From positions 288,001-352,000 of the forward strand of contig CAWHHI010000008.1 of the NCBI GenBank assembly GCA_963829055.1: 64,000 bases of DNA, read 5' to 3'. The notes under the pieces were generated by a model, which saw only the letters and a program-made list of their open reading frames with translations, made no database searches and was not told where the DNA came from. The first letter of the stretch is position 1. Each line of letters starts with the position of its first letter. Both the position numbers and the translations under genes were made by a program. The DNA is from an uncultured Gemmatimonadaceae bacterium (GTDB lineage Bacteria > Gemmatimonadota > Gemmatimonadetes > Gemmatimonadales > Gemmatimonadaceae). Shown one piece after another: positions 1,164 to 63,908 of this stretch.

Positions 1164-2324
1164 CTAGAAGCTCAGATGCGACGCCAACCGCTCCAGACTC
1201 GCGAGATCATGCGCCGGAGCGAAGACGTCCACGTGAGGCAGCGCCGCTTCCATGCCTCGGGTCAGCGGACGATACGTCGGGCTCCCGAGAAGCGGGTTGA
1301 GCCAGATCACGCGCCCCGCCTTCCTGCGGATCTCACGAAGCGCGGTGCTCAGGACCTCGGGATCGCCAGTATCCCAGCCATCGCTCAACACGATCACCGC
1401 CGTGCGTCGATCGAACAGCCGAGGCCAGCCGAGTCGCAGCGCCTCGAGGCTCTCGCCGATCTTCGTTCCGCCGGACCACCCACCATCGGGCACGGCGGCG
1501 AGCGCGTCGAGCGCCTCGCGATACGTGTCTCGCGACAACGACTCCGTGATGCGAACGAGTCGTGTGCTGAACGCGAACGTCTCGATACGCGCGAACGCGT
1601 GCTGTAACGCGTAGAGCACCTGCAGCAGGAACCGGCTGTAGAGGTCCATCGAGCCAGAGACGTCGCACGCAACGACCAGCTTCGTTCGCCGAACTTTGCG
1701 TTGCCGCCGGACGAGCCGGATGGGATCGCCGCCCGTCGCGAGTGCGAGACGGACAATGCGCCGCGGATCCAGGCGCCCGCGGTGACCCGCACTTCGCCAC
1801 CGCCGGCTGCGACGGGCACGGAGGCGCCTAACGATCCGGGCAATTGCGCCCGCCAGCGCATCGAGATCGTCACCGCCGTAGAGGCGAAAGTCCTTCGTCG
1901 CCGCGCCCTCCCGCACGCTCGGCGCCGCCAACGGAATCGTCTCCTCTCCTTCGGCGTCAGCCAGCGACGACGCCCAGCGGGTGAGCGCGGTACTTCCCGT
2001 CGCCGTCTTCGGCTCATCCGTCGGGGAGATGACGGGAGGGTTCGTCGCCGCGCCGCGCCTGCTTGGCACGGTCCCGTCGTGACTCGCGTCGCGTCGCCCC
2101 CACCAGGCCTCGAACAGCTCGTCGAACAAGTCGAGGTCCTGCCGGCGCGTCACGAAGAGCGTCCGGAGCGCCAGATACACGTCCATGCGATCCGTAGCGT
2201 CCACGGCAGCCAGGACGCGAACCGCCTCGATGGACGTCGCCGGCGTCGCGGCGATCCCACGTTCGCGCAGCAGCCGGCTGAACTGCGTGGCGAAGGTGAC
2301 GGGATCGACCGCCGCGGCCGTCAC
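1164..2324 (-). CDS. coxE: CoxE-like vWA-domain protein
   Basis: MIDAS motif DVSGSM, WSGGTKIG, LSDGWD, WLNPL; overlaps the MoxR ATPase gene. Confidence 0.88.
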   Translation of the reverse strand: MTAAAVDPVTFATQFSRLLRERGIAATPATSIEAVRVLAAVDATDRMDVYLALRTLFVTRRQDLDLFDELFEAWWGRRDASHDGTVPSRRGAATNPPVISPTDEPKTATGSTALTRWASSLADAEGEETIPLAAPSVREGAATKDFRLYGGDDLDALAGAIARIVRRLRARRSRRWRSAGHRGRLDPRRIVRLALATGGDPIRLVRRQRKVRRTKLVVACDVSGSMDLYSRFLLQVLYALQHAFARIETFAFSTRLVRITESLSRDTYREALDALAAVPDGGWSGGTKIGESLEALRLGWPRLFDRRTAVIVLSDGWDTGDPEVLSTALREIRRKAGRVIWLNPLLGSPTYRPLTRGMEAALPHVDVFAPAHDLASLERLASHLSF

Positions 2325-3217
2325 CCCGCGGTGCGCCCTGCCGCGACCATCGCGCTGGCGCCTCGGTCGCTGACCTCACGTCGAACCTGGCGGACGTCCG
2401 CTTCGTCCTTGAGCACGCAGCCTAACGTCTCGGACACGACGTCGTCATCCAGCGTGTTTGCCCCGATCACCACCAGCGCGCGCGCCCAATCGATCGTCTC
2501 GGCCACGCCTGGCGTCTTCACGAGACGCTGGCGTCGAACGGCCTGCACGAACGCCGCGACATCGGCGGCGAGCTGCTGGTCGATCACCGGAACCTTGGCG
2601 CGAACGATCTCGATCTCCTTCGACAGCGACGGATAGTCGATCCACAGGTAGAGACACCGGCGGCGCAGCGCCTCGGACAGCTCGCGCGTCCGGTTCGACG
2701 TCAGCACCGTACATGGCTCGTTCGTCGCGCGGATCGTCCCGATCTCGGGGATCGTCACCTGATGTTCCGACAGCACCTCCAGCAGGAACGCCTCGAACTC
2801 CTCGTCGCTGCGATCGACCTCGTCGATGAGCAGCACCGTCGTCTGCGTGGCGCGGATGGCGCGAAGCAACGGTCGCTCGAGCAGAAACGCCTCGCTGAAG
2901 ATCTGCGCCTCGCGCTCGCCGACCGATTGCCCGGAGCCTTCCCCCAGCTTGATGTGCAGGAGTTGCTTGGCGTAGTTCCACTCGTAGAGCGCCGTCGCGA
3001 CGTCGAGTCCCTCGTAGCACTGCAGCCGGATGAGGTCCGTTGCGAGCACGCGCGCGAGAACCTTCGCCACCTCGGTCTTGCCAACGCCCGGCGGACCTTC
3101 GATGAGCAGCGGCTTGTGGAGCGTCATGGCGAGGTACGCCGACGTCGCTGTCGCGCGATCGGTGACGTACCCCTGCTCTGCCATCGCTTGCTGAACGCGC
3201 GCGATCTCTTCCTTCAC
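2321..3217 (-). CDS. coxD: CoxD-like MoxR AAA+ ATPase
   Basis: EGPPGVGKT, RLQCYEGLD, LLIDEVDR, TSNRTRELSEALRRRC; GTG start overlaps the xdhC stop (GTGA). Confidence 0.9.
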   Translation of the reverse strand: MKEEIARVQQAMAEQGYVTDRATATSAYLAMTLHKPLLIEGPPGVGKTEVAKVLARVLATDLIRLQCYEGLDVATALYEWNYAKQLLHIKLGEGSGQSVGEREAQIFSEAFLLERPLLRAIRATQTTVLLIDEVDRSDEEFEAFLLEVLSEHQVTIPEIGTIRATNEPCTVLTSNRTRELSEALRRRCLYLWIDYPSLSKEIEIVRAKVPVIDQQLAADVAAFVQAVRRQRLVKTPGVAETIDWARALVVIGANTLDDDVVSETLGCVLKDEADVRQVRREVSDRGASAMVAAGRTAG

Positions 3218-4242
3218 GTCGCCTGTCCCGCCTGACGACGCAGGTAGGTCGCCTTGCATCCGGGGCAGCAGAAGTAGACGGTGCGCTCGCCTTCGACGAT
3301 CGTGTGGCGAGCGGTCGTCGTGTCCACTGGCATGCCACACACCGGGTCGACCGCCATTGCCGGTACAGCGGTGCGAGGACCGGTGCGCCTCGCGAGCGGC
3401 GTCGGCACGTCCACCGAGTGCGGAGCAGCAGTCACCGCCTGCGTGGCGTTAGGCTTCCGGTACCGCCGCTGCACGATCTCCGCCAGCACGCTGAGGGCTA
3501 TCTCCGAGGCGCTCATGCCGCCGAGGTCGAGTCCGGCCGGAAATTTCACGCGCGCGAGTCGATCGGCACCGATCCCCGTCGCCGCGACGTAGTCGATGAG
3601 GTAATGCGCCTTCTTGCGACTGGCGACCAGTCCTATGTACGCCGCGTCGCTCGCCGCCGCCGCCGCGAGCGCCTCTTCGTCGCCGGCACCCATCGTTCCC
3701 ACGACGACGAACGTGGAGTCATCGGCACGAGCAACGGCCGCGGTGATGTCAGACGTTAGGCGTATGCCCGGGGGAAACAGGTCCGCCGGCAGCGCAGCGG
3801 AACCGACGACGACCTCGAACCCGAGCTCGGCGCCTTGCCTCGCGAGGGACTGCACCACCGGTGTATGCCCGAGCAGCACGAGGCGCGGCGCCGCGAGCAC
3901 CGGCTCCAGGTAGATCTCGATGCCCCCTTCACCCTGGCAGGTCATGGGATACTCGCGCACGTCGCCATGGCGGGTCGGGTCGGTATTGGCGGGCCCCGCG
4001 CCGGCATTCATGCGAACGAGCCGAGGCCGTCCGTCGGCGAGCGCGTCGGCCGCTTCCTGCCTGACGACTGGCTGCACACACCCACCGCCAACCCACCCGT
4101 CGATGGCCCCGTCCGCCCGCACGATCGCCTTCGCACCCGGCCGCACACTCTGCGGTGGGTAGCTCGCGACGACGGTCGCCATGACGAATGGCGTCCGGTC
4201 GGCGCGAAGCTGAGCAGCGGTCGTGAAGATATCGTTGGTCAT
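3214..4242 (-). CDS. XdhC/CoxF-CoxI family molybdenum-cofactor chaperone with C-terminal YHS domain
   Basis: GWVGGGCVQ, YPMTCQGEG, YIGLVASRKK, PAGLDLG, EIALSVLAEI; C-terminal DPVCGM...YFCCPGC. Confidence 0.88.
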   Translation of the reverse strand: MTNDIFTTAAQLRADRTPFVMATVVASYPPQSVRPGAKAIVRADGAIDGWVGGGCVQPVVRQEAADALADGRPRLVRMNAGAGPANTDPTRHGDVREYPMTCQGEGGIEIYLEPVLAAPRLVLLGHTPVVQSLARQGAELGFEVVVGSAALPADLFPPGIRLTSDITAAVARADDSTFVVVGTMGAGDEEALAAAAASDAAYIGLVASRKKAHYLIDYVAATGIGADRLARVKFPAGLDLGGMSASEIALSVLAEIVQRRYRKPNATQAVTAAPHSVDVPTPLARRTGPRTAVPAMAVDPVCGMPVDTTTARHTIVEGERTVYFCCPGCKATYLRRQAGQAT

Positions 4243-4571: not shown

Positions 4572-6098
4572 TCACCGGCCTTTCGGAATCGAATTGCCGT
4601 GACACGCGGTGCACAGCGATGGATTCTTCGCCCGCATCCGATCGGCGTTGAACCCCGGCCCGTGAGGGCTGAATCTGAACCCGCCGTTCACGGCCGAATG
4701 GCACGCCGTGCAGTCGCGCTCCGCATGGCAGGCCACGCACGACTCCAGACTCTGCCGCGCCGCCTGGCCGTGGCCGAGGCTGAAGTTGCGATAGGCGTCG
4801 TGATAGCCAGCCTGGCCGAGTCGCGAAGTAGCGACGAGACCTGACTTTTGGTGACAGGCCTGGCAGAACTGCGCCGCGTTGTGGCAGTCGCTGCAGTTCG
4901 CCTCGCGAGCGTACGCGGAGCTCGGGTGCCGCGTGAGAAACTGCGGAGGATGGTAGCCGACCTGTCGCGTGACGTCGGGGCGATGACAGTCGAGACATGT
5001 CGAGCGCACGTGGCAGGTCTCGCACGAGGACGGACGTGAATTTGCGGCTGACCCGTGCCGTTCCTTGAACTCGGGCGTGTGGTTCGCCGGCGGCACTCGC
5101 GCGAGCTGCACTCCTACCCCACGGCCCGGACCGGCGACTGGCATGGCATTCACAACGCGGGTCTGCACCCCGATGTGGCAGCTCACGCAGCTCTCACGGG
5201 CGTGGCACGTGACGCAGTTCGCACCGGTGCGCTGCGCGTCCTTCCCATGCGCGCGGATGAAGTTGGCGGATTCGTGACTTGGCGGCGCTGGCAGCGATGA
5301 CGTGTAGGCAGGCGACCGATCATCCATCGCGAGCGCGCGAATCACGGGCGATTCGGGCGCGTTGACGTGGCAGGTAATGCAGAAGTTCTGCGCGTGGCAG
5401 GTGGCGCAGCTGGCCGAGACCGCCATCGGTCCGGAGGTGGCTGATCCTTTCGCGGCTCTGCCGTGGCCTCCGGTCAGGAAGTCGGCCGCGTCGTGGGACC
5501 GTGGCTTCGGGAACAGCGCGATGTCCTCACGCGTTAGGCTCCGTGCAGCCGTAACGGGCACGTGACAGGTCGCGCACGCCTCGCTCGGGACGTCCACGTG
5601 AGGCCCCCTGAATCCGTGACAGCTCACGCATTGATTCACGACCGCGCGCGTGACCTCCATGCGCGGCGCGCCGCGCTCGTTATGACAGGCGGCGCAATTC
5701 CCGTTGAGCGTACTGTCGGCAGGATTCTTCGCCGTTGCGGCGCGGGCGTGCGCCTCGTGCGTGAACCGGAGGTTGCGCGTTGGCAGGCCGGCGGTGCGAG
5801 GCTGCCAGGTCACGCGCTGCTGGATGACACCATCGTGGCACGACGCGCACCCCGATGGATTCGGCAATATCGGCTGGCCCGCCTGCGTGACTCCCGCATG
5901 GCACGTTGCGCAGAGCGGAAAGAGCCGAGCGTGTCTCGAGTGCTGGAAGCGGTCCTCGCGTGCCGCGCTGGCACGAACCGCCGGCGGCAGGACACGTGCA
6001 GCGACCGCGTCCACACCCCACGTTGCCACCCCGAGCGCGACGGCGCCGAGCGCACCGACGGCGAGCAGCGTACCGACGACGTGGCGACGTGCGGTCAT
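4572..6098 (-). CDS. Exported 16-heme c-type cytochrome
   Basis: 16 CxxCH motifs counted, hydrophobic N-terminal signal/anchor, intact ORF, ATGA overlap with the porin gene. Confidence 0.92.
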   Translation of the reverse strand: MTARRHVVGTLLAVGALGAVALGVATWGVDAVAARVLPPAVRASAAREDRFQHSRHARLFPLCATCHAGVTQAGQPILPNPSGCASCHDGVIQQRVTWQPRTAGLPTRNLRFTHEAHARAATAKNPADSTLNGNCAACHNERGAPRMEVTRAVVNQCVSCHGFRGPHVDVPSEACATCHVPVTAARSLTREDIALFPKPRSHDAADFLTGGHGRAAKGSATSGPMAVSASCATCHAQNFCITCHVNAPESPVIRALAMDDRSPAYTSSLPAPPSHESANFIRAHGKDAQRTGANCVTCHARESCVSCHIGVQTRVVNAMPVAGPGRGVGVQLARVPPANHTPEFKERHGSAANSRPSSCETCHVRSTCLDCHRPDVTRQVGYHPPQFLTRHPSSAYAREANCSDCHNAAQFCQACHQKSGLVATSRLGQAGYHDAYRNFSLGHGQAARQSLESCVACHAERDCTACHSAVNGGFRFSPHGPGFNADRMRAKNPSLCTACHGNSIPKGR

Positions 6099-7576
6099 CG
6101 CCGCGTCGGTCGTGCGGGAGGCAACGCCAGCCGGTCCGCGCCGGAGCCGAACGACGCACTCACCCCGGTGCGGATGCGAAACTGCGACAACGATGACGCG
6201 CTGGCATCGGGTCGATCGCGCTCATCATTGACGAGTGTGACGTCAGCCCAGAGGCGGTACTCGGTACCGAACTGGCGCTCGCCGCGGGCGCCGATCCACA
6301 GACTGCTGGCGTCGTAGAAGCGCAGCTCGAGCGGCCGGTCCAGGGCCCCGCCGTGGACGTCGAACGAGTACGCGGCGTTAGGCGCCCAGCGCACGGCAGC
6401 GTCGGCGAACCGGGCGGAGGCGCCGGGCCCGTGCTCGAATCCGAGGTTGCCGTCGACGCTCCAGCGCGGATTCAGCGTGGCGGTCCCACCGCCGCTCGTC
6501 CGCCAGCCGCGATCCTCGAGGTCCGGGACGAGCGCCGTCGAGACGCCGGCGTCCTCGTACCGGTATGCTTCGCCGCGAGCATGCAGCGTCAGGCGGTCGG
6601 TCGCGCGAACGTCGGCCGACGCATTCACCGCGTTGTACGGCACCGGGCTGAACGCGCTCCACAGCGACCACAGACTGAAATAGGGCCGGTAGCGCCGCGC
6701 TCCACCGGTGACCGACAACCGCGGGCGCGTGTACGTGACTGTGACGTCCGCGCTCCCCACGGCGCCTTCGGCAATGTTGTAGTCGGCGCTGCCGGCGACA
6801 TGAAACGACGCGAGCTGTGCGCCGAGCGAGATGACCGTGCGCTCCGAGACGATGTTGTTGTCCCGCGGGTCGATTTCCCGGCGGTACTCCGCGCGGGTGT
6901 CGATGTCGCTGGAGTGCCACCCGGCTTCGACGCCCGCCACGATCTGCCGATCGGCAGGGCGCCACTCATCCAGCGGATTCAACGCGGGACTGTACACCGG
7001 AACGACGGCCGCCCGACCCAGGCCCCACCCGGCGTAGCCGCCAAACTCGATCGATGCATCGCGCCAGCGGCCCTCGACCGATGCACCGTCGAATCCGAGC
7101 GGCTCGAGACGCGACGCCAGAAGCAGACGCCCGCCTCGGGCGATGAGCGACGGACGCCGGTACTCGACGAAGCCCTCGATCAGCTGCCCGGTCGGTTCGG
7201 TCGCGGGCCATGCGTCGTCCGGGCCCAGATCCGCGACCAGTCGGCCAGTCGCATGGATCGTGAGACCGGGGACACGCAGTCCCCAGAGGATCACGCTGCC
7301 GCTGGTCGACACGGGCACGCCACGGAGCTCGTCACCCGGCCTCGTGTAATAGCAGTAGGCGCTGTCGCTGCAGCGCACCGCGTGACCATCGGGCGTCTGG
7401 AACCCGCCGCTCGGGGATGGCACTACGGCCGTGGCCAGAATGCTGTCGGCGATGAGGCCGCGGTACGACACGGCCTGCCCTCGCGCGTCGAGGCGCACGC
7501 GGTAGTTCTGCGCGCCTAACGAACCGGCCCACACCGCGAGGATGCTCGCGGCGATCCACGCGCGACGCCGCCTCAT
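6095..7576 (-). CDS. Putative outer-membrane beta-barrel (porin of a porin-cytochrome complex)
   Basis: Sec signal peptide, alternating aromatic/Gly beta-strand pattern, no CxxCH, translationally coupled between two multiheme cytochromes. Confidence 0.72.
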   Translation of the reverse strand: MRRRRAWIAASILAVWAGSLGAQNYRVRLDARGQAVSYRGLIADSILATAVVPSPSGGFQTPDGHAVRCSDSAYCYYTRPGDELRGVPVSTSGSVILWGLRVPGLTIHATGRLVADLGPDDAWPATEPTGQLIEGFVEYRRPSLIARGGRLLLASRLEPLGFDGASVEGRWRDASIEFGGYAGWGLGRAAVVPVYSPALNPLDEWRPADRQIVAGVEAGWHSSDIDTRAEYRREIDPRDNNIVSERTVISLGAQLASFHVAGSADYNIAEGAVGSADVTVTYTRPRLSVTGGARRYRPYFSLWSLWSAFSPVPYNAVNASADVRATDRLTLHARGEAYRYEDAGVSTALVPDLEDRGWRTSGGGTATLNPRWSVDGNLGFEHGPGASARFADAAVRWAPNAAYSFDVHGGALDRPLELRFYDASSLWIGARGERQFGTEYRLWADVTLVNDERDRPDASASSLSQFRIRTGVSASFGSGADRLALPPARPTRR

Positions 7577-9591
7577 CCTGAGGACTTGGTGAGCTTCGCC
7601 CGATACGCGCCTGGCTCAGTGAGAAAATGACAGGTGCTGCATTCCTGCTGCGGGTAGTGGTTCGCGGCCTTGGCCGAGTGGCACGTGCTGCAAAACGTTC
7701 TGGTGGGCGTGAGCTGCGCGACGGTTGCGGCCGCGTGGCAGGCGTCGCATCGCTGGTGCGCCACCTCGAGCGTCGCGTGGGCGGCTTTCGGGTCGGCGAG
7801 TGTATGGCATCCCGAACACGCGCGGCCGGCCGCGTGATGATCGCTGTGACAATCCTTGCACTGGGCAGTGGCCGGTGACGGCGCGAGCGTGACCGGCGTG
7901 GTGTGACACGCGGTGCACGTTCGCATGGAATGAGTGGCGTGCGAGAATTCCACAGGGCGCGGCGCGGCCTTGTGACCCGGGACGGTGACCGTCAGCGAGG
8001 CCGCGATGGGGGCGGCGAGCTCGTTAGGCTTGTGACACGAAGGGCACCGGGCCGCCGTGGGCTGCTGATGGTGGCAGATGGTGCACCCACGCGGCGGCTC
8101 GAACGTCAGGTGGCTCCGGGTCGACGTCGTCTGATGACAGACGAGGCACGCGATCTTTGCGTGCCTCGCGTGGGCAAACGTGTCGGCCTTGACGGGTGGT
8201 GGCCGTAACGGTGGAGCAATCCCTGGCGGGTCGTCGGCGATGCCTGGCGGGGGGCTCGTCGGCCGAGGGCCCGCTGGTCCGCGGCCGCGCGAGGAACGAC
8301 TCGATGGCCTGACGTACCACGGGCGGCGTCGGCGCGGCGCTCGTGCGGCGGAGTGCCCTGGTCGTATCGAAGGGCACCGGTGGCCGCACGTTCCCGCGAG
8401 ACCGGGCATTCGCGTGGCATCCCGTGCAGTCGCTCGCGTCGACCTTCGCCTGGTGCGGGGTGTGACACGTTAGGCATTGCGTCGGCTGCGAGGCGACCTT
8501 CTTGTGCGCGGCGCCGGCGTGGAACGGGTTGTCGCGCCAGCTGCCGTGACACGCGGCCGTCGTGCAGGTCTTGGCGGCCGCCGCTGTCGTCTCCTGCGTG
8601 TGCGGGTTGTGACACGTGCCGCACTTCCCACCGTGCGGGTCCTTGGCCGGGTCGAAATCCGGGAGCGCCTTCTTCATGTCGTGGCACCCGAAACACTGCG
8701 GCCCGCCCGGGACGAGCGTTCCGCGCGCCGAATCGCGCGTCGCGAGCGCGGGGACCTGAGCGGTGAAGTGCGTGACACACGGTGCAATGACGGATCGTCT
8801 GGTCGCGCATCTTGTCGAGCACGATCTTCGTGTCGTTCGCCTTGTGACACCCACTCTGGCCGCAGGTCGCGCGAGCGGGCTGGAAGCGGTGCACCTCCAC
8901 GCCGTGGCACGTCACGCATTTGACGTCCTTGAGCGCGCTCGAATCGGACTCGAGGTGGACGCGGTGCCCCGCCGTCGCCCGGATGCGCTGCCAGTTGGCG
9001 GTGTCCCCGGTGACGTGACACGTCTCGCAGACGCGATTCTCCACGGTCGCGTGCACGCCGATCTTGTCCGGCCGCTCCAGGAGCCAGAAGTAGAGCTGCC
9101 ACGCACTGGCGAACACCGACTGCGTGTGGCACGAGTGGCACGACAGCTCACCGTGCTTGTTCTCCGCGCTCGCGAACTTCGAGTACGCCGGGTGCATCAC
9201 GTGACACGACGTGCAGAAGTCGTTCGAGTGCTGCGTGTAGTTCCAGGTGGCGGTTCCCATGCCGACCGTCGCCACGAGCAGCACGGCCGCCCCGGCAACC
9301 AGCGCCACCGTCACGCCTCGGCTGCGTGACCTGAGCCAGGCGATGATGGCCGCGCGGTGCCTAACGAGGTACCAGACGACCACCACCGGCGACGATAGCC
9401 GCGACCACGAGCCCCGCCAGTTGCACCCACTGCGGAACCGTGGACAACAGGAACCGGGTGACCGCGGCAACGCCGCCGGGCAGCGGCGACTTGACGATGA
9501 CCGAATCCGGCGGTTGCACCGGCGTCGCTTGCTGCAACGCCGCCACCCAGAAGCGAATCGGGATGGCGGCGCTCGCGTGCAGTCCGGTCAC
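7573..9591 (-). CDS. Membrane-anchored ~20-heme cytochrome with an N-terminal NapC/NirT-like domain (frameshifted in this assembly)
   Basis: TM segments then WNYTQHSNDFCTSCHVM and ELSCHSCH (NapC/NirT-like); 18 CxxCH plus 2 CX4CH across joined frames; Pro-rich linker ~8190-8350; start approximate. Confidence 0.82.
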
Positions 9592-9610
9592 GAGGCGCGG
9601 CGTGAGTGGT

Positions 9611-11181
9611 TTACCGGGCCTGACGCGCGGCGCCGGTCCGCGCCGCGGTGCTCGGCAGTCTGGCAACCAACGTCCTCATGAAGGCCTGTTGGGAGGTCTG
9701 TCCACTCGTCGCAACGTCCGCCAACGCGTAGTAGGTCTTGATGTAGGCGGTCGTCGACGACAGCAGCGCGTCGCACAGGAAGGGATTGTGAACCCCTTTC
9801 GAGTTGTCACTGTTCGACGCGCCGTACTCGCCGCAGAGTCGAGCGTTGAACTCGGCGCCCTCAGCTGCCGTGATGTCCGCGTGGTCCATTCGGCAGGACG
9901 CTGCTGCTTCACGATGGCGAGCAATCCGCCATCGGTTGGCGCGGCCTGAAGCGTGTTGTCCTTATTCGTGTCCAGCCACAGCTGTTCCGTGGCCGTCTTC
10001 ATGCGAGTGCGAACGCTGTTGAACACCGAGACCGCCACAGCCGCGTCTGCGTGACACCCGGACTGCGTGCAGGACTGCCAGGTTCGCGCGGCCGTCGTGT
10101 ACGCGCACGTCTTGTCGGCTGTCGGCTTGCCCGTGCGCATCCAGGCACGGGATCGGGCGGAACAAGTGGCCGGTCGCCTTGAACACGAAGTTGCCCGACG
10201 TCGGGTCGTTTACCGTGAACTGGAGCACGTGACAGCCCGCGCAGAGCTTCGGGTTCTTGGTCGTGGCGTGCGACCCATAGATCCGTGCGGTGTCGTACAC
10301 GAATCCGGGCGGGCGCCAGCCGGCGTAGCCCAGCAGCACGGCTCCCTGTGGCGCGTGCGGTGTGACCGTCGACGGCGGCTCCGGCTCTGCGCGCCGATTG
10401 TGGCACTTCATGCACAGGTTCTGATCGGGATCCGCGGAGGTCACCGGATAGCGCAACTGATTCGGATTCGACGACCCATGTGGGTCGTGGCAGGTTGCGC
10501 AGGTGGCCGGCGGTTGATAGTCGGTCGGGTTCGCCTTCTCGACGTAAGTTGGCATCGATGCCCCAGCGCGCGAGCGCACCGCGAGCCTCGTGGCAGCCGA
10601 CGCACGACGGATTCGACGCCCGCGACGTGTTCAGGTTCGCGTGTCGTGACTGCTTCCACTCATCCGTGAATGGATGGTGAGCCCCGGAATGACAGTCGCT
10701 ACAGTTGCCGGTGCCGTTCACGCCCAGCTCTGCCAGCGGTCTCACCAGGTTGCCCTGGCCCACCCCTTCCACGTGCTCCAGGCCTGCCCCATGGCAGCTC
10801 TCGCACTGGACGTCGTGGTAGACCGGGTCCTTGACGCCGTCCCATCCGGCAGTCGTGCCAGCGGCCGCGTTGCCCCTGCCGTTCGTTGTATGGCACCCGA
10901 AGCACGAGTCCTTCTTGCCCGGATTCGAGTTCAGTGTGTTGTAGGCCTTGGCATGATTCGTCATGCCCCAGCTGCCCTGGAAGTCGGCGTGACAATTACC
11001 GCACGTCGTCTTTTGCGTTGGTCGCGTCGTAGTAGCCGAGGAAGCTCGCCGCAGCCGCCGCCGGCGGATTGAACGGCGGCCGATCCTGGTACACGACGTC
11101 ATCTTCGCACGCCGTGAGCACGGCAACGGCGATCAGCGTGGCCTTCGCGAGAGCGAGCGGACTGAACGACGTGATGCGCAT
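9611..11181 (-). CDS. Lipoprotein 9-heme c-type cytochrome (c554/c552-like; frameshifted)
   Basis: Lipobox VLTAC; 8 CxxCH plus CTQSGCH across joined frames; C-terminal DNSKGVHNP. Confidence 0.85.
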
Positions 11182-39477: not shown

Positions 39478-39483
39478 TTGTCT

Positions 39484-54835: not shown

Positions 54836-55588
54836 ATGGACGAACATCTCTACGACGCGTTTTTTCGCCTGGAACGATCGCATTGGTGGTTCGTCGCGAG
54901 GCAGCAGATCCTTCTTCGATTGACGCGCCGGTTTTTACCGCCGGGCGGAAAGTTCCTGGACGTCGGGTGTGGCACCGGAGACTACCTCGAGACGGCATCG
55001 CGAGAATTCAATGGGCACGGGATCGATTGCTCCGCTACGGCCGTTCGGATTTGTCGTGAGCGCGGGCTGACGAACGTCACGGCAACCACGCTGGAAGACC
55101 TCACAGAGCAGCCACAGGCTCAATTCAACGCTGTCATGTTCTTCGACGTCATCGAGCACCTCGACGACGACACCGGCGCACTGGCGGCCGCAAGACGAGT
55201 CCTCGTGCCCGGGGGCGTCGTGATGGTGACCGTGCCGGCGTATCAATTTTTGTGGTCTCGTCACGATGACGAGAACCAGCATCGGCGACGGTATGCCGCC
55301 CGTCAGCTACGGGCGCGCCTCAAGACCGCTGGGTATCGCGTCGAGATGCTGACTTACTTCAACACGCTGCTGTTTCCGCTAGCGGTGGCTCGGCGTACCG
55401 CACAGCGTTTTTTTCCACAACCCGATTATGACGAGCTGGCAATGCCTCGCGGGTGGAGGAACGCTTGCCTGCGCCGGGTGTTCGGGGTGGAGGCCCCTTT
55501 CGTCAAACGGGCTAGCGCGTACGAGTTGTTTCCGTTCGGACTATCGATTGCCGCGGTCGGCCGATTCGTCGGTGGGCCAGTCAATTGA
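54836..55588 (+). CDS. Class I SAM-dependent methyltransferase (glycan-cluster type)
   Basis: HWWF, LDVGCGTG, DVIEHLDDD, TVPAYQFLWSRHD...HRRRY. Confidence 0.9.
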   Translation: MDEHLYDAFFRLERSHWWFVARQQILLRLTRRFLPPGGKFLDVGCGTGDYLETASREFNGHGIDCSATAVRICRERGLTNVTATTLEDLTEQPQAQFNAVMFFDVIEHLDDDTGALAAARRVLVPGGVVMVTVPAYQFLWSRHDDENQHRRRYAARQLRARLKTAGYRVEMLTYFNTLLFPLAVARRTAQRFFPQPDYDELAMPRGWRNACLRRVFGVEAPFVKRASAYELFPFGLSIAAVGRFVGGPVN

Positions 55589-55597
55589 GCGACCGGC

Positions 55598-56656
55598 ATG
55601 GTCGAAGGCCACAGCGTGCCTAACGACGTCGCAGGCCCGCGGAATCGTGACCGCCTTCTCGTAGCCCTTGGAGTCGCGTGTGCTGCGGCAGCCATCGCGA
55701 CGTACGCGATTCGTTTAAATGGCGATCCGAACAACGCCAGCGACTTCACATGGTACTGGCGCGCCGGCCGCGCCATTCTCGAGGGGCGGAGTCCGTATCG
55801 GGTGATCAACCCGGACGGCCCGTACCCCAGAAACGCCGGCTTTCTGTATCCATTGCCCGCTGCGCTCATCGCCGCGCCGTTCGCGCTCTTCCCGCTATGG
55901 CACGGCATGGCCGCGTTTTCCGCTTTGCCGCAGGCACTCTGGCATTCGTGATGACGCGAGACGGATACTGGCGGCTTCCGTTGCTCATGTCATTCCCAAT
56001 GCTGTGGTGCGTCCAGTCAGGACAATGGACCCCGCTCGTCGTTGCTGCCGCGTTGTCACCGGTGCTTGCGTGCCTAGCCGTAGGCAAACCGACGATTGCC
56101 GCGGCGGCATTCGCGCACAGCCCGACTCGTCGCTTCGCCGCGTCGGCGACTGCCATCCTGCTGCTCGCATTGGCACTCGCTCCCGGGTGGCCGTCGGAAT
56201 ACCTGGCGGAGATTCGCGTTCGCGCAGCGGTGAACTACAGCATTCCCTTTCTGGTTTTCCCGGGACCGCTGCTCCTGCTAGCCGTGGCTCGGTGGCGCCG
56301 GTCTGAGGCGCGTTTGCTGCTGGCGCTGGCCTGTGTCCCACAGACCATGCTCTTCTACGATCAGTTACCGCTTCTGGTTCTCGCGCGCTCGTTCCGAGAA
56401 GCACTCGTGATGGCGGTGGCCAGCTACGTACCGATCGCCGTCATCTTCTTTGCCGCGCCCGCCGAATGACAGCGTCGCCGCCACGCTCGTCATAACTAGT
56501 CCGGTAATCGTCTGCTTGTACTATCTGCCGTGTCTCGTGGCGGTGCTCCTGCGGCCTAACGTCGGGAATGTGCCTGCGTTCGTCGACCGCTTGGCTCGGT
56601 ACGCCCCTCAGTGGCTTCGCGGCGTTCCGTCAACCGCGGGACTGCGACAGGGCTAG
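55598..56656 (+). CDS. GT-C/GT87-like polytopic membrane protein, paralog 1 (frameshifted)
   Basis: SDFTWYW..GRSPY, YPLPA, GQW, KPT, RWRRSEARLL, YLPCL..LLRPN. Confidence 0.65.
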
Positions 56657-56717
56657 CCTTATTTCTGTCCGCCGAGCTGGTAGCCGGCGACTGTCAGGCG
56701 CTCGTCGAAGCGACGAC

Positions 56718-57730
56718 TCATTCTGGCAGCGGCTGACCGCGAGCCCACCGCGGTAGTACACCGGCTGCCTTCTCGACCCATGCCGGTATCCTTCCCTCGT
56801 TAGGTCGTCTCAGGATCAGGTAGAGGGCCGGCAAGTAAACGCAGACGAACACGGCTATTCCGTTGTTGCGGAAGTACGTCACCAGGTCGTCCTTGGGCCC
56901 CAGCGCGTAGTACGCGAGCGCGAGGTCGGTGCCGATGACGAGTGCATAGGTCTGGAAACGGGTTCGTGCGATGACGAACAACGGCAGCACTTCATAGACG
57001 AACGGTGATTGTGGCACGATGGCCATCGCGACGAGCAGCCTCGCCTCGGGGCGCCGCCAACGGCAGAGCGCCAGAAGCGCGAGAAACCCGCCGGGTCCGC
57101 GCAGCGGCGAGTAATGAATCGGGGTGCCCGATGTCGGCGAGTCGCCGAGAGCCGCTAACCACTGTTTGGGCCAGTCGGGGATTATCAGCAGGCATAACGC
57201 CGCGAACAGCAGCATGGCTACCGCAGTCCAGAGCGTAGGTCGGTACAGCCAGGATGGCCAAGCCAATGTTCGGCTTGATGGCACCGACGGCCGAGAGGGA
57301 CGGCGCGAAAACCGCCGCCGCGAGCAGCATGGACCATTGGCCCTGCACGGCTCCGTGCGCGAACGCGGCACTGAGAAAGATTGGGAGGTAATGATACGAC
57401 CGCTGCGTCACTACCCAGGCGAGCAGCGCACTGGTTACGCCCGAGAAAACCGCCGTTGCTACGTCCGAAGCGAAGACTGTGAACGGTGCGGCCGCAACGA
57501 ACGCGGGAAGCGGGTAGTAGGTCCCTACGAACGGGTTCTGCCCGTTGAGGAGTGTTTTGGCGGCGAGCCAGCTCCAGGTGAAAGTCCGGCGGCGCGCCAA
57601 ACTGTGGGCGATGTATCGCGAACCACGAGGCACCCGCCGCGAAGAGCCCGACGCCGAGTGCGATGCGCAGCCGGTGCACTCGACGCGGGAGACGGCGGGC
57701 GGTCAGCCTCCCGGGCGGGACGGTCTCCAT
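56718..57730 (-). CDS. GT-C/GT87-like membrane protein, paralog 2 (frameshifted)
   Basis: DF..W..GQNPF, YPLPA, GQW, KPN, RWRRPEARLL, YLPAL..LRRPN. Confidence 0.65.
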
Positions 57731-57733
57731 CGC

Positions 57734-58785
57734 CTAACGATTTCCGCGGAGTGAAAGGCACGGCGACCCCGCCATGCGTGGTGGGGGCCGTAGGCGTGAA
57801 TACGCGCTGCATGATCGGGAGATCGACGCTGAGCAGCAACACCAGCAGCAGCGCGGCACCCACCACCGACGCCATGAGCGCAGGCTCTCGATACAGCTTC
57901 TCGGGGTTCTGCGCGGCGCTGTCGTCTTTCATCGCGACGTGCAGGTACAACGCCATCACCAGCGCGATTGCGGGAAAGGCGAGAATCATCTCGAGGCGAT
58001 ATCGCATGCAGAACGCGCCGAAGAAAAGCATGGCCGACGACGCGTAGAACATCACCGACACGAGCAACCGTTCGCCGGTGAAGTAGCGAAACGACTTCCG
58101 ATACGCAGTTGCCCGGGTCGCATCGCCAATGTTCCTGAACTCGGCGAATCGTTTGAGTGCCATGAAGTAGCAGCCAATCATCCAGTAGCTGAGCAGCAAC
58201 GACGCTGGCGCGACGGTGACCGAGGTGACAATGAACCACCCGGCAAGCATCCGAATCGGGTTGTTGATGGCCTCGCTGAGTACGTCCACATATGGCAGAT
58301 CCTTACTTCGCACGGGCGGGATGTTGTACAATGCATCCCATTACCCAGAGCGACAGCACGGACAGTGTGAACGGCATGGAGATGGAAGACGCCACGGCGA
58401 TGCCCGCAACCATCAGCGCGATCCACTGCGCGTATCCGAGAGCCACGTTCACCTGACCGGAGGGAACTGGCCGCCGATGCTTCGTGGGGTGGAAGCGATC
58501 GAACGGCGCGTCGATCAGCTCGTTGAGCGTGTAGTTGCTCGATGCGATGAGGCACACCGAGGCAAGTCCGACGACGATCCTCCACCCGAATCCCGCGCGA
58601 TCCACGAACGGGTCGGTACCGAGCGCGATCACGATGCCCGGGAACACGAACACGTTCTTGAACCAATGGTCGACACGGGCGATCGCGACGTGCCCACGCC
58701 AGGTCGGAGTACCACGGCTTGCGCCGATGGTGTTCGCCTGCTCGCTGCCCGGCTCGCGCGCCTGTTGGCCAACTTCAGGTGTCAT
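57734..58785 (-). CDS. UbiA-family prenyltransferase, decaprenyl-phosphate phosphoribosyltransferase-like (frameshifted)
   Basis: ARVDHWFKN, YTLNELIDAPFDRFHPTKHRRPVPSG, KRFAE. Confidence 0.82.
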
Positions 58786-59022
58786 GGTCAATCGGAGAGG
58801 GCATGGGCCGGGCGTGGGGAGTGCGTTACGAACGGCACGCTGAATCGACATCGACTACAGCATACCCCAATGTAATCAGACGACCGAGCGTTCGACGACG
58901 TTGCGCGCTGCTCAATGCTTATGGTAGCGCGTCTGTCTCTGTGGGTGTCATGTTCCGGCAGCAGCCTGATCAACGAGATCGTCCCGAATCCGACCGAACT
59001 GATGGCGACGAATGCAGTGGCC

Positions 59023-59983
59023 ATGACCTCGAGCGTGGCAAGCGAGAGCACCGACGTCAAACCACCGTTATGGGTGCGGCTCCTCATCGCCGCGGCCGTA
59101 GCGGCTATCGCCGTGGTCCTGGCTGATCACCCACTCTCCGACGACTTCGCGCAGGTCTGGATGGCTGCCCGAGTCATGCTGGGAGGGGGTGACCCGTACA
59201 CGCTCGTTGGACCAGGGCTGCTTCATGACTCCGCCCTATCCGCTCTACTACCCGGAGACCGCGGGGGTGGCGGTTCTGCCGCTCACTCCATTGCCGTTGC
59301 ACATCGCCCGCGTGACCTTCGCGGCGGGCGGCGCCGCGGTCTTTCGCGATGATGCTCACCCGCGACGGGCTTTCAAAGTTACCGTGGCTCCTGAGTTACG
59401 CGTTTCTGAGCTGCCTCTACGTGGTACAATGGACGACCTGGCTCGCGGCGGCCGCCGTGTACCCGGTGATCGGGTTCCTTGCGTCCGCAAAGCCGAACGC
59501 GGGGATCGCCGCTCTTGCTTCGAATGCGTCACGGCGCTCGCTGCTCATCATCGCTCGCGGGTTGCGCCGTGGTGGGGGTGGTGTCGCTCGCGATGGATCC
59601 CGGTTGGCCCATGCAATGGTTCCCGATGACGCGGAACGTGCCGCACTTCCGCACGCTCGCTGCTCGTTCATCCGGCCGGCGTGTTGCTGCTCGCAAGCCT
59701 GCTTCGGTGGCGCCGCCCCGAGGCAAGAGCGCTCGCGGCGCTCGCGGTCATCCCGCACAATCCCCTGCCTCACAACATCTTGCTGCTCGCGGTGGGGCGA
59801 TGGACGGTCGGCGAGTCGGCGGTGCTCTCGGTGCTCTCGTGGTGCGTGGTACCGCTCATCTGGCCCGGCGGGCAACAATCGGCTGATTTCGCCGCGCTGA
59901 GCATCGTATCGGGGCGCGCGAGTCTCTTCCTGCTTTATCTGCCGGCACTAGCGATGTTGCTGAGAAAGCCGAATTCGGCGTAG
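59023..59983 (+). CDS. GT-C/GT87-like membrane protein, paralog 3 (frameshifted)
   Basis: DDFAQVW..GGDPY, YYPET, VQW, KPN, RWRRPEAR, YLPAL..LLRKPN. Confidence 0.65.
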
Positions 59984-60151
59984 GGCGATGCGCTCGCGCT
60001 CGTTCGTGGGCCGCGCTCCGGACAGCGCGCTTCACGCTATATCTCAGCATTGTGCAAAACGAACCCTGGTCTCGCGTCGGCAGGCGTGATCGACGTTAGG
60101 CGTGAACGGCCGGGCGAACCTCTTCGGACAGGATCAGAGGAACAGAAGCAT

Positions 60152-61435
60152 ATGCAGAAGCTGTGGGCAATCGTGCAGCGGGAGTATCTGGAACGCGTGC
60201 GAACGCGTTGGTTCGCCATCGCTACGGTGTTCGGGCCAATCGTGTTCGGCGCGCTCATGTACCTCCCGGCATATGCCGCCATGAGGTCCAACGCATCGGT
60301 AGACGTCGCGCGCATTCAGATTCTCGACGCGACCGCTACCGAATTGGGGCAGCGTGTCGCGAATGAGCTCAACGGCGGTCTGACCGGTGACACCACGCGC
60401 ACGCGGGTCGTTAGGCTGGATCCGGCGTCGCTGACGGCTGCCGAGTCGACCGCGACGAAAGCGGTGCTCGCCAAAGACATCAAGGGGTATCTCGTCCTGG
60501 ACCATAACGCGTTGATTGGACGAGGCGCGCGCTACGCGGGAACGAATGCCACGTCGCTCACGGACATGAGGCGGATCGAAGGCGCGGTGAACCGTGAGGT
60601 GCTCGCACAGCAGTTGCGCACGGCGGGGCTCTCGTCCACCGATGCGGAGCGGCTCAAGGGAATGCGATTCGAGCTTCGGGCGGACCGCATAACGGCGACC
60701 GGTCGTGGAGGATCAGGGCAGATAAGCATCCTCATCGCGCTGTCGATCGCGTTCCTGCTCTACATGACGATCTTCATCTACGGCCAGAACGTCCTGCGCG
60801 GCGTGATGGAGGAGAAGCAGACGCGGGTCGCCGAGATCGTGATCTCGAGCGTGCGATCCACCACGCTGCTTGCCGGAAAGGTGCTCGGCGTAGGCGCGGT
60901 GGGGCTCACGCAACTCCTCATCTGGATTGGTGTGAGCTTCGCCATGGCTCGCTACCGTGCATCGTTGCTGAACATGATGGGCATCGACGCATCGCCGGTG
61001 CAGTTTCCGTCCACATCCATCGGACAGGTCGCACTGCTTGTCGTGTTCTTCATGCTCGGCTACACGTTCTACGCGGCCCTGTTCGCGGCCATCGGCGCGA
61101 TGGTGAATACGGAACAGGAAGCGCAGCAGGCACAGTTGCCGGTGGTCATGCTGTTGATCGTGAGCATCATGTTCCTGCAACCGGTATTGAACGCACCGGA
61201 CGGCAAGTTGGCGAATACGCTCACGTGGCTTCCGTTCTCGTCGCCCATCGTGATGCCACTGCGTATGAGCGCGGTGACTGTGCCCGCCTGGGAGATCGCG
61301 GCGTCGATATTCGCCTTGATGGCAGGCTGCTACATCGCGGTCTGGCTCGCGGCGCGTATTTACCGAACAGGCTTACTCATGTACGGCAAGCGACCGTCGA
61401 TCGGAGAGCTTGCGCGATGGGTCAGACAGGGGTGA
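60152..61435 (+). CDS. ABC-2 type permease (NatB/YhaP-like)
   Basis: REYLERVR, VMEEKQTRVAEI, GKVLGVG, PFSSPIVMPLR, IYRTGLLMYGK. Confidence 0.9.
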   Translation: MQKLWAIVQREYLERVRTRWFAIATVFGPIVFGALMYLPAYAAMRSNASVDVARIQILDATATELGQRVANELNGGLTGDTTRTRVVRLDPASLTAAESTATKAVLAKDIKGYLVLDHNALIGRGARYAGTNATSLTDMRRIEGAVNREVLAQQLRTAGLSSTDAERLKGMRFELRADRITATGRGGSGQISILIALSIAFLLYMTIFIYGQNVLRGVMEEKQTRVAEIVISSVRSTTLLAGKVLGVGAVGLTQLLIWIGVSFAMARYRASLLNMMGIDASPVQFPSTSIGQVALLVVFFMLGYTFYAALFAAIGAMVNTEQEAQQAQLPVVMLLIVSIMFLQPVLNAPDGKLANTLTWLPFSSPIVMPLRMSAVTVPAWEIAASIFALMAGCYIAVWLAARIYRTGLLMYGKRPSIGELARWVRQG

Positions 61436-61465
61436 CCGCGGGCGGTCTATCGTGCAACGCGGAAT

Positions 61466-61843
61466 TCAGCGGAGGAACGTTCCCACTGATCTCTGTCGAT
61501 CGAACGTGAGACTATCGACACGCCATCCGGCCGATTCGTCGCTCGTCACACACGTGTACCATTCTGGACGCGTGCTGCCTCGTGGCTCGAAGAAGCCGCG
61601 GACCGTATAGCGATTCAGTCGCTGTTGCGATACACGGATCAGATCCCCCGTAGGAAACGGAATCCGGGCAGCTTCGGGTCGGACGTGTCGAATCGCAGCT
61701 CGGCACTCGGCGTACGCCTCGACTGTCCGATCGACACGCGGCCTCGCGCGAACGTTCGCCATGAGCCAGACAGCGTTCGCGACGACAAGGCCCGCAAACA
61801 GCAGCCACCAATTGTTGAAACGGGATGTCACGTCTGCGTTCAT
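61466..61843 (-). CDS. Hypothetical protein with N-terminal TM segment
   Basis: ORF with hydrophobic N-terminus and two Cys; follows the GT2 gene. Confidence 0.5.
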   Translation of the reverse strand: MNADVTSRFNNWWLLFAGLVVANAVWLMANVRARPRVDRTVEAYAECRAAIRHVRPEAARIPFPTGDLIRVSQQRLNRYTVRGFFEPRGSTRPEWYTCVTSDESAGWRVDSLTFDRQRSVGTFLR

Positions 61844-61847
61844 CGCA

Positions 61848-62714
61848 TCAACGTGAAGGACGGTGACGCCACCGTCCTGTCAGCGTGATCGGCTCGCGCG
61901 TAGCCAGTCGGAGGCGGCAGGAGCATCGACGCGCGCCTCGCGGTCGGCTGCGATCGAACACGCGCTGGTAGTCGGCGCGCACGGTGTTCTCGAGGACTGC
62001 GCTCTGGTAGTCGCCTGAAGCTGATGCCACTTGATGCGAAACACGTCGACCACGCTGCACTGCATCGCGAAGGAGACGAACCGTCGACGTCTCGTTTTGC
62101 CGGAGCTGCACCGGGATTCGCTTGATGTCGAGCTTGTGCTTGAGCGCGAGATAGACCAGCTCGACGTCGAACGAGAATCGCTCGAGTCGCTGGAGTCGGA
62201 ATAGCTCGTCGGCAATGTCGCCGCGCATCCCCTTGAGACCACACTGGGTGTCGAAGAATCCGCCGGTCACCAGTCGCCCAACGAACTGAGAGAAGATCGT
62301 CGACGCGAGCCGCCGCTGCAACGACAGGTCAGCGAGGTAGACCGAGTCGGGGAGCGTGCGATCGCCGATGACGACGTGAAAGCCGTAATCGCGAATGTAC
62401 CCCACGATCACGGGCAGCAGCTCGAGATCGTACGGGAGATCGACATCGGTGAACACCCGCACATTGCCGCGGGCGGCACGCATTCCGCTCGCGACGGCCG
62501 CGCCCTTGCCGCGGTTGGTCGGTAGCCTGATGAGCCGCGCGCCAAGGGCGGGGTCCCACGGCTGCTCGGTAAAGTCGCCGCCGCCATCGTCCACGACGAT
62601 GATCTCCGACGAGAGCCCAGTTCCGCGCAAAAACGCATCGAGGCGCACGACCGACGCGACAGCGAGTGGCGCCGAGCGGTAGCACGGCAGTATGACGGAC
62701 AGGTCTGGGTTCAT
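61848..62714 (-). CDS. GT2 polyprenyl-phosphate glycosyltransferase (Dol-P-Glc/Man synthase-like; frameshift near C-terminus)
   Basis: SVILPCY, IVVDDG, NRGKGAAV, FTDVDL, DTQCGLK, FSFDVEL. Confidence 0.88.
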   Translation of the reverse strand: MNPDLSVILPCYRSAPLAVASVVRLDAFLRGTGLSSEIIVVDDGGGDFTEQPWDPALGARLIRLPTNRGKGAAVASGMRAARGNVRVFTDVDLPYDLELLPVIVGYIRDYGFHVVIGDRTLPDSVYLADLSLQRRLASTIFSQFVGRLVTGGFFDTQCGLKGMRGDIADELFRLQRLERFSFDVELVYLALKHKLDIKRIPVQLRQNETSTVRLLRDAVQRGRRVSHQVASASGDYQSAVLENTVRADYQRVFDRSRPRGARRCSCRLRLATREPITLTGRWRHRPSR

Positions 62715-62963
62715 CCTGCTTCGTCGAGACGGATCGCTGAGGCGCATGGGGTCACATTCAGACGACCTGGATGGGTCGCAGTTGCGCCGCCCGGCCTCGA
62801 ATGTCGCAGACGTCCTTGGACGCAGCAACGGATACGCACCTTCCCGCCCCGATTCGTTGCCTGCGGTGACGGGCGCGGTCGGCAGTCGTAAGTTCTAGCG
62901 TGCGCTCCCCTTCTCCAACAACTGCTCGGCTGCCTACACCGCAATCTCGCGCCGCCACGATCC

Positions 62964-63908
62964 GTGTTCGGCTGGCATTCGCCCTGGTCATCGGGGTTTC
63001 TGAGCGCGCTGTACGTGCTTCTATATGCACGGGCCAACCCGGACTTCGTGAGTGACTTCGACCAGGTCTGGGCGGGCGCGAGAGCGTTATGGCACGGTCA
63101 GAACCCATACATCGTCGTCGGGCCTGGACGCGCATTCCACTGGCATTGGCCACTCTACTACCCGCTGCCAGCGCTGGTGCTGACCGCGCCGCTCGGTCTC
63201 ATTGCGGTGGTGCCGGCGAGAATGGTCTTCGCCGGCGTGTCAGCAGCGCTCCTCGCATTCGCGATCACTCGCGATGGCTTCGCACGCTGGCCGCTCTTCA
63301 TCAGCATCGCGTTCATGGTGAACGTGGAGCTCGTGCAGTGGTCGAACCTGCTCGCTGCAGCAATGCTACTCCCGGCACTCGGCGGTATCGCGGTCGCGAA
63401 GCCGAACATTGGGCTCGCCATGGGTGCACACGCCGACCGCGTGAGCTCCATCCGCTGGCTCGTCGCGGGAAGCGCGATTCTCATCGCGTCCAGCTTCGCG
63501 GTCTTCCCGGGCTGGCTCGGTTACTGGATCGAGAATGCTCGGAGCGCGCCCCATGTCACGCCTCTCCTTCTCCGCCCCGGCGGTCCGCTGCTGCTGGTGG
63601 CGTTGGTACGTTGGCGTCGTCCCGAGGCGAGGCTGCTCGTCGCCCTCGCCTGCACGCCGCTCACGCCGACGTTCTATGACCCAGTGCTTCTCTATCTCGT
63701 GACACGATCATTCCGCGAGGCGCTCACCCTCACGGTGTGCACGTTCGTGCTGTTCTTCATCGTGGCGTTCAACTCTCCGCTGCCGACGGCCGCGGCGTGG
63801 GGCGATCTCGTCGCGACCGCGTCCATCTGGGTCATCTATCTCCCCTGTCTCGTCATGGTGCTCTTGCGCCCTAACGAGGCTCCCGCATCCGCGGAGCGAG
63901 CAGCATGA
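62964..63908 (+). CDS. GT-C/GT87-like membrane protein, paralog 4 (start may lie near 62900)
   Basis: SDFDQVW..GQNPY, YYPLPA, VQW, KPN, RWRRPEARLL, YLPCL..LLRPN. Confidence 0.68.
   Translation: MFGWHSPWSSGFLSALYVLLYARANPDFVSDFDQVWAGARALWHGQNPYIVVGPGRAFHWHWPLYYPLPALVLTAPLGLIAVVPARMVFAGVSAALLAFAITRDGFARWPLFISIAFMVNVELVQWSNLLAAAMLLPALGGIAVAKPNIGLAMGAHADRVSSIRWLVAGSAILIASSFAVFPGWLGYWIENARSAPHVTPLLLRPGGPLLLVALVRWRRPEARLLVALACTPLTPTFYDPVLLYLVTRSFREALTLTVCTFVLFFIVAFNSPLPTAAAWGDLVATASIWVIYLPCLVMVLLRPNEAPASAERAA

Follow-up and report, generated by a model that had tools for sequence, protein, structure and literature searches.

The CGTTAGG word in the window, its genome and its order

The stretch of DNA analyzed here (the window; 64,000 nucleotides of contig CAWHHI010000008.1, positions 288,001 to 352,000) belongs to an uncultured Gemmatimonadaceae bacterium whose assembly, GCA_963829055.1 (hereafter G000), comprises 7.78 Mb in 20 contigs and is 86% complete. 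It carries a multiheme-cytochrome block, tandem susC-susD pairs and a glycosylation-type gene cluster, and dispersed along it is a short non-palindromic word, CGTTAGG, which is the subject of this report. A first-pass annotation of the window had described about 56 exact copies and about seven six-base variants, in both orientations. Our count agreed: there are 56 exact copies, 33 on the plus and 23 on the minus strand, including all 14 coordinates that the annotation had quoted, and 63 occurrences of the six-base core, that is, seven variants beyond the exact copies. The chance expectation of about 7 given there, at roughly 68% GC, proved too high, as 100 dinucleotide shuffles of the window (G+C content, 66.8%) yielded 3.04 ± 1.69 copies and never more than 9. 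The features considered below are as follows.

1827..63876, both strands: 56 dispersed CGTTAGG sites (exact-match count, reading frame determined for each site)
Plus-strand CGTTAGG starts: 3447, 3754, 5532, 6376, 8022, 8468, 12684, 16297, 16648, 21550, 25145, 26935, 31520, 31529, 34376, 34722, 35288, 38462, 40289, 40855, 42198, 42617, 43651, 44760, 45024, 47140, 47430, 48932, 52198, 54304, 56798, 60094, 60409
Minus-strand CGTTAGG sites, low coordinates: 1827, 2421, 7515, 9360, 11393, 12320, 13611, 21151, 21871, 23031, 27462, 33924, 37237, 38731, 38803, 40048, 45596, 46913, 49923, 55619, 56555, 57733, 63870
31520..31535, plus: close pair of sites, 9 bp apart, a rare arrangement; kept in genomes G001, G002, G005 and G006
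43651..43657, plus: site in the first susC-susD spacer, 2 bases past the susC stop
48932..48938, plus: site in the paralogous second susC-susD spacer, 3 bases past the stop
44760..45602: three sites in susC (44760, 45024 and 45596) spanned by short-read contigs; the eighth base varies between C and T at two of them
4572..13007: multiheme-cytochrome block and neighbors, nine sites; common to congeners
54037..64000: glycosylation-type cluster (GT2, UbiA-family, methyltransferase), eight sites in 10 kb

The annotation had also remarked that the word occupies the equivalent position in both susC-susD spacers. The positions do correspond, but because the two susC-susD pairs are tandem paralogues, these sites count as a single event.

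Across G000 the word occurs 6,391 times (3,237 plus, 3,154 minus), against 249 copies expected under an order-2 Markov model, and CGTTAGG and an overlapping neighbor are the two most enriched 7-mers of the genome. The strict core is six bases long; it is preceded by C in 90% of cases and followed by C as the eighth base in 78%. These counts confirm that the enrichment of CGTTAGG(C) is real in both window and genome.

All seven genomes of the genus are rich in the word, with 3,400 to 6,700 copies each, and G014, a member of a different genus, has 9,004 copies in 5.1 Mb. In a set of 41 genomes, which includes the unpublished G013, five further genomes from two families carried 560 to 800 copies and most of the other 28 fewer than 270, while 10 of 20 additional genomes of the family had at least three sites per 13- to 20-kb sample. 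The cultured Gemmatirosa kalamazoonensis KBS708 carries 225 sites in 350 kb of its two megaplasmids, and in the first 150 kb the eighth base is C in 107 of 108 cores. The word is thus rich throughout the genus and patchy and graded across the Gemmatimonadaceae and the order, at 0 to about 1.8 copies per kb. We found no description of it in the literature searched, a body that leaves out most subscription papers. Variants with one inner base changed are enriched in two moderately rich genomes and may be dialects (G010, 26 versus 5.4 expected, L043 and L064-L068; G036, 11 versus 1.9 expected, L045 and L069-L070).

Codon context, conservation, spacing and base composition

Gene-level figures for G000 come from a custom gene caller, used because the assembly has frameshifts, which returned 7,178 genes and 76% coding DNA. 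The 5,363 confidently called genes contain 3,846 sites, against 231 to 316 after protein-preserving synonymous shuffles. The annotation had allowed that the enrichment might vanish under such shuffles; instead, it persisted at 12- to 16-fold. Occupancy of compatible contexts was 62% for Pro-Asn-x, 28% for x-Leu-Gly, 8% for x-Leu-Thr and 4% for x-Val-Arg, where codon usage predicts 5.5%, 0.3%, 0.5% and 0.1%, respectively, and the log-odds excess over codon usage was 2.9 to 5.0 in all four open phases, on either strand. These data show that the force acts on DNA, with similar size in all four open reading phases, and not on protein. The word was said to impose an otherwise rare TTA leucine codon, and indeed 1,802 of 2,601 TTA codons (69%) in confidently called genes lie inside the core; Pro-Asn ranks 7th of 400 dipeptides in G000.

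Stop codons receive no special treatment. The word holds 228 of 705 TAA stops, which equals the background share of TAA triplets inside the core (7,103 of 20,484), and a stop-codon signal was rejected on this ground. We also rejected an origin as cassette scars, as there is no pre-start enrichment in the cassette orientation and both orientations are alike after stops. Short-read contigs covering the window were taken from four public runs belonging to four studies. Over the three susC sites that they span, the seven bases are unaltered among the differences listed (40 of 75), while neighboring bases vary, a result that speaks against the basecalling artefact raised in the annotation.

Of the G000 sites at which the dipeptide is conserved, G001 shares 28 of 41, against 17 of 460 such contexts in which G000 is without the word; A/T-ending four-fold codons are kept in only 18% of cases between these genomes. 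Sites of the window were kept in 14 of 22, 17 of 20, 8 of 24, 27 of 39 and 2 of 2 cases in five congeners, compared with 20 to 35% for other 7-mers. Orthologous sites are, in sum, retained in congeners.

Site density follows tolerance. In spacers it is 1.66 per kb between convergent genes, 1.24 between co-directional genes and 0.54 between divergent genes; within genes it runs from 0.54 to 0.88 per kb across deciles of third-position G+C, the lowest decile still holding 0.54. No copy of the word was found in the aligned rRNA, tuf and groEL copies, and no site clusters of autoregulatory appearance were seen, the densest clusters being pairs of attC (the integron recombination site) or long spacers. 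Native stretches of 10 to 16 kb without the word exist in G000.

Sites in G000 have a mean spacing of 1.2 kb. Relative to background, pair density in successive 50-bp steps to 300 bp was 0.27, 0.32, 0.45, 0.54, 0.73 and 0.81, and beyond that distance 0.9 to 1.0; 150 control 7-mers, taken from 186 of similar abundance, all stayed at 0.84 or above. The short-range deficit was equal for direct and both inverted orientations. In G014 the range of avoidance was the same despite a twofold site density, and in KBS708 avoidance extended from 50 to 250 bp, with an excess below 50 bp from short tandem repeats. These data show mutual avoidance of sites at distances below about 300 bp, whatever their orientation, from which we infer a reader of double-stranded DNA without direction.

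Base composition also changes near sites. Within the same gene, G+C at four-fold sites was 1.84 ± 0.16 points higher at 10 to 100 bp from a G000 site than at 200 bp or more, after filtering of out-of-frame stretches. The rise was 1.89 ± 0.59 points in congeners and 1.25 ± 0.68 in G014, and random placements gave about 0.2 or less. This halo is two-sided, and identical rare codons outside the word sit in negative halos. Recombination is reported to be linked to higher G+C in bacteria (PMC4450053, in the text available); the halo is compatible with G+C-biased conversion in site-centered tracts and equally with site-directed repair.

CGTTAGG is, we conclude, a real, conserved, orientation-free and self-spacing genomic word of part of the Gemmatimonadales. 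The proposal of a genome-wide cis signal is supported by the Markov excess, the codon shuffles, the conservation and the independence of phase, with selection or drive as the underlying force.

The word in lineage-specific and foreign DNA

From the presence of the word, the annotation had argued that the cytochrome block and the glycosylation cluster stem from the same lineage or are long resident. For the cytochrome block this holds, as it is found at 71 to 80% DNA identity in three congeners. The glycosylation cluster, by contrast, had no long match in five congeners among the 40 candidates scored per genome (genomes 77 to 92% complete), yet it carries its eight sites, so the word cannot be used here to gauge residence time. 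The cytochrome block has an interest of its own: positions 4572-11181 hold MtrC/MtrF-like and NapC/NirT-like matches with a probable beta-barrel partner and are a candidate extracellular electron-transfer locus.

A phage contig in the G001 bin, L106 (G001:C201), has no site in 11.9 kb, and the three viral contigs closest to it have none in 17 kb, the host being unproven in both cases. L106 encodes terminase, portal and capsid and has three IMG/VR relatives, with terminase identity of 78 to 79%. No terminase, as a marker of prophages, was found in G000. Several word-free blocks stand at contig ends of G000 (C6:5-55 kb, C6:592-623 kb, C11:1-44 kb and C4:1-2.8 kb); their genes look foreign from the translations read alone, and the blocks are probably chimeric joins or contamination.

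Three further elements were recorded. An intergenic element of about 600 bp, a self-inverted repeat, is present in G000 in some 10 copies at 84 to 90% identity (C4:771.8-772.4 kb, C1:24.1-24.7 kb and about eight others); most copies have one word in one arm, and the element resembles a miniature inverted-repeat transposable element or a structured RNA. The window also has a second over-represented word family, of G/C-run 7- to 8-mers in about 20 to 36 copies, apparently short tandem repeats after genes. Its only Rfam match is a thiamine pyrophosphate riboswitch at 39470-39575 (minus strand), upstream of a thiC-like gene.

Candidate readers and explanations

The explanation that we tentatively favor, at a little short of an even chance, is that CGTTAGG is a self-tag resembling an uptake sequence, spread by biased uptake and short-tract recombination. 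On this view, the competence pilus would have a receptor that recognizes the word in double-stranded DNA; fragments with the word would be imported and recombined more often, and through this bias the word would become fixed at all positions where the encoded proteins permit it. A short fragment would presumably need no more than one site, which would account for the mutual avoidance below about 300 bp; the G+C rise would mark recombination tracts, and uptake would be the biased step. This explanation draws on the DNA-level force across phases, the conservation, the independence of strand and orientation, the avoidance, the G+C rise and a complete complement of genes for competence and type IV pili. 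G000 encodes comEA-pilB-pilT-pilC, two pilA genes with pilVWX-pilMNOPQ, three more pilins and a FimT-like gene. ComEC is present in 40 of the 41 genomes, a ComEA-type helix-hairpin-helix protein in all 41 and PilM in 37. A FimT-like pilin occurs in 136 of 151 genomes of the family (a tally that also includes the unpublished G099), with a C-terminal motif of the GRxR type, as described in the available part of PMC8897410, in the copies aligned.

The closest known systems are the DNA uptake sequence (DUS) of Neisseriaceae and the uptake signal sequence (USS) of Pasteurellaceae. Like them, the word is non-palindromic, occurs about once per 1.2 kb (mean DUS spacing is given as 1.15 kb in the portion available of PMC2397512) on both strands, and is over-represented beyond codon usage. 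It likewise lies inside genes in several phases, where it enriches the encoded peptides, is conserved among relatives, is placed where tolerated and absent from rRNA copies, and has a host that encodes type IV pilus and competence genes. In Haemophilus, a second USS within 100 bp is reported to add no uptake (PMC7811141, available text), a redundancy that would, by analogy, be what an uptake model of the word needs. Unlike DUS and USS, the word has a shorter core, uses the rarest codons and lacks terminator-type inverted pairs; it avoids itself at short range, while 23% of USS are put within 100 bp of another (PMC7811141); it stands at full density in lineage-specific and imported genes, one phage contig alone showing the absence typical of DUS and USS; and its host belongs to a different phylum, the uptake role being putative here. 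We have not filed the word as a DUS or USS, because it lacks two of their features, absence from acquired genes and inverted pairs at terminators, and no receptor was found.

Several results weigh against an uptake tag. The core is merely six to eight bases, and close inverted pairs of the DUS/USS terminator type show no excess, with a deficit below 200 bp. DUS and USS are described, in the available text of PMC2397512 and PMC2817400, as missing from genes of recent acquisition and from those for which relatives have no homologue, whereas the window's lineage-specific glycosylation cluster is at full density and 12 sites fall within the 10.6 kb of a type I restriction locus in G001, whose 79 homologous loci together have 8 in 831 kb. 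The closest homologues of this locus, at 72 to 84% identity, are mostly from other phyla; amino-acid changes there spell the word, and two of the three sites in the methylase gene involve such changes. Core-gene-rich contigs are also poorer in the word than the rest. Two explanations offer themselves, a long circulation of imported genes among relatives rich in the word or a force on all intracellular DNA; the foreign-gene densities come from small samples of undated acquisitions.

Competence genes, moreover, are equally common in word-poor genomes, and no receptor was seen to track the word, as neither the pilin genes nor the FimT residues compared set rich genomes apart from poor ones. The pilin operons of 20 genomes yielded no rich-only pilin. 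An aromatic residue in the FimT hairpin was present in eight rich genomes and in no aligned word-poor one, but at least six rich genomes are without it, so it is not the determinant; ComEA was rejected as determinant, being present in all 41 genomes. As for the G+C rise, the best of 40 control words gave a similar value, and no rise was seen in KBS708 (0.31 ± 0.41, 115 genes), which at 72% G+C may have little room for one. Synonymous identity to congeners showed no clear trend with distance from sites.

The main rival, possible but less likely than an uptake tag, is a protein inside the cell that would bind the word in duplex DNA and have a reach of about 300 bp, in repair of C/G lesions, in loading of a recombination or repair complex, or in nucleoid organization, as has been proposed for the highly iterated palindrome HIP1 of cyanobacteria. 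Each site would bring a small benefit, and a second site nearby would add little. Such a protein would explain why stamping extends to all of the cell's DNA, be it lineage-specific genes, imported ones or the two Gemmatirosa megaplasmids; it would also explain the orientation-independent avoidance and the symmetric G+C rise. For HIP1 sites, too, conservation is reported and a structural role proposed (PMC5861425, in its available part), and HIP1 shares with the word its hyper-abundance, its shortness, its presence in and between genes, its conservation beyond codons and its patchiness among relatives. The word differs from HIP1 in not being a palindrome and in avoiding itself at 300 bp; furthermore, no methylase with a target in the word was found in these incomplete genomes, and no methylation of it is reported in word-rich KBS708. 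Set against an intracellular protein are the lack of any candidate for it, the native 10- to 16-kb stretches without the word, which imply that coverage is not required, and the patchy, graded spread across the order, which would need repeated gain and loss of a housekeeping function.

A connection to integrons emerged from the word-poor genome G027, where the word occurs every 500 to 650 bp in arrays, as the right end of inverted repeats of 80 to 130 bp, and where one array adjoins an integron-integrase match. The cassette arrays of this chromosomal integron type in G027 (family f2; L001-L003) are large, and their attC repeats are homogeneous. In G000, an integron integrase (IntI) gene (TIGR02249, 266 bits against a cut-off of 265) is followed by attC-like repeats ending in the word, and further true attC pairs are present at a few other loci. 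The letters of the word are therefore those of the ends of the order's attC-like repeats; that the match is causal is conjecture. The word also fits the general attC core consensus, GTTRRRY (R' and R'' boxes).

It is improbable, in our judgment, that an integron integrase or a derivative is itself the reader, binding the attC core on incoming or chromosomal DNA and biasing recombination toward word-bearing DNA. Beyond the shared spelling in G027 and G000, this would agree with reports, in the available text of each, that integrases recruit cassettes from transforming single-stranded DNA (PMC12614218) and insert cassettes at many genomic sites (bioRxiv 2022.09.11.507474). The genomic target consensus reported, however, is just three bases, and the presence of IntI does not track richness: it is found in 29 of 41 genomes, word-rich and word-poor alike, and was not found in rich G004 (92% complete) or in moderately rich G010 and G020. 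Unlike attC cores, copies of the word in the genome stand alone, without a partner for a hairpin, are located in core genes and vary in number independently of IntI; attC-like inverted R''/R' pairs 50 to 140 bp apart show no genome-wide excess in G000 but rather a deficit.

The complete G000 IntI (L004:10009-10986; C20:208 kb) has lost the catalytic Lys and the first His, and in the cassette array behind it the left ends of attC are decayed; the IntI of G001 appears similarly divergent. A dead integrase as reader was rejected, as only the complete IntI of G000 is without two catalytic residues and those of other rich genomes are intact. A second G000 copy is severed by a chimeric contig end. 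A stand-alone IntI N-terminal domain was rejected as well, none being restricted to rich genomes. An unlikely, though less improbable, connection is that a third independent uptake-tag system was born from an integron: a receptor for cassette ends would have served to fish cassettes from fragmented soil DNA, and its bias would then have written the core genome-wide, stamping imports too.

A site of methylation or other modification, serving strand discrimination or self/non-self marking as proposed for HIP1, was among the analogies offered in the annotation; we regard it as very unlikely. In its favor, an Eco57I/type IIG-like adenine methylase lies beside an SNF2-type helicase in all five rich genomes tried, and a D12-class methylase is present in all four genus members tried. 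The first enzyme, however, is order-wide, with trees that follow taxonomy and not word richness (the G000, G009 and G011 rows being excluded as partial or non-orthologous), and it was rejected; the second was not found in rich G014. No methylase tracking the word was found among the families searched in these incomplete rich genomes: there was no C5 methylase in five rich genomes, and no N6/N4 methylase family had a member in all seven genus genomes. The methylome of word-rich KBS708 holds three N6-methyladenine motifs, none matching the word (PMC3974934), data that do not extend to 5-methylcytosine or phosphorothioate. The methylase-helicase pair itself (L335-L353, e.g., L336:5098-10592) is vertically inherited; it consists of a methylase of 1,000 to 1,085 amino acids with intact motifs and an overlapping helicase, bears a weak likeness to DrmMI/DrmD of the DISARM defense system, and adjoins a HAD phosphatase and an extracytoplasmic-function-type sigma factor.

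A polar replication or recombination signal, such as Chi, the FtsK-orienting polar sequences (KOPS) or a primase-type site, is already disfavored and slightly less probable still. The word is short, asymmetric, over-represented and present about once per kb, as such signals are, and in seven 50-kb blocks of the KBS708 megaplasmids the G-richer strand carries 136 of 225 sites (post hoc P = 0.002, with origins unknown). About the G000 dif site (C16:560790, i.e., 560.8 kb), where gene strand and skew switch, 449 sites on C16 are nonetheless leading and 405 lagging (P = 0.14), and all G000 blocks with clear skew give 881 versus 858 (P = 0.60). The strand-skew check suggested in the annotation thus detected no replication polarity in G000. 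Opposed sites avoid each other as strongly as like-oriented ones, which a directional signal would not predict, and the Chi-like analogy is not supported. The word is also not present in the dif arms, which differ from it, and a XerC/XerD half-site was rejected. The placement of dif is unusual, with core-gene clusters around it and an rRNA operon at a distance of about 45 kb. Finally, the assembly does have frameshifts, chimeric contig ends and some true attC pairs, but production of the word by codon bias, cassette scars or assembly artefact is refuted by its survival of synonymous shuffles, its presence in short-read contigs, core-gene sites common to several species (e.g., in pyrG), seven independent rich genomes plus one finished genome, and three word-free contig-end blocks of 31 to 50 kb in the same assembly.

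Accounts of hyper-abundant genomic words generally list only three kinds, namely Chi, uptake sequences and HIP1 (PMC4390886, in the part available), and CGTTAGG adds a fourth, in an abundant soil phylum; sequence-tag uptake has so far been described for two proteobacterial families. New here are the 300-bp range, which holds regardless of orientation in two genera, the halo of raised G+C around sites, the finding that imported genes are stamped too, and the elimination of several candidate readers. The word also has practical value, in that blocks without it point to foreign DNA in these assemblies. With its graded strength among relatives and a type strain in culture, it lends itself to natural contrasts and to a direct test at the bench of how such words arise, whether by drive, by selection for recombination or through an intracellular function, a question still unsettled for HIP1 as well. 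Should the match to the attC core prove causal, the word would link natural transformation to the capture of integron cassettes in these bacteria.

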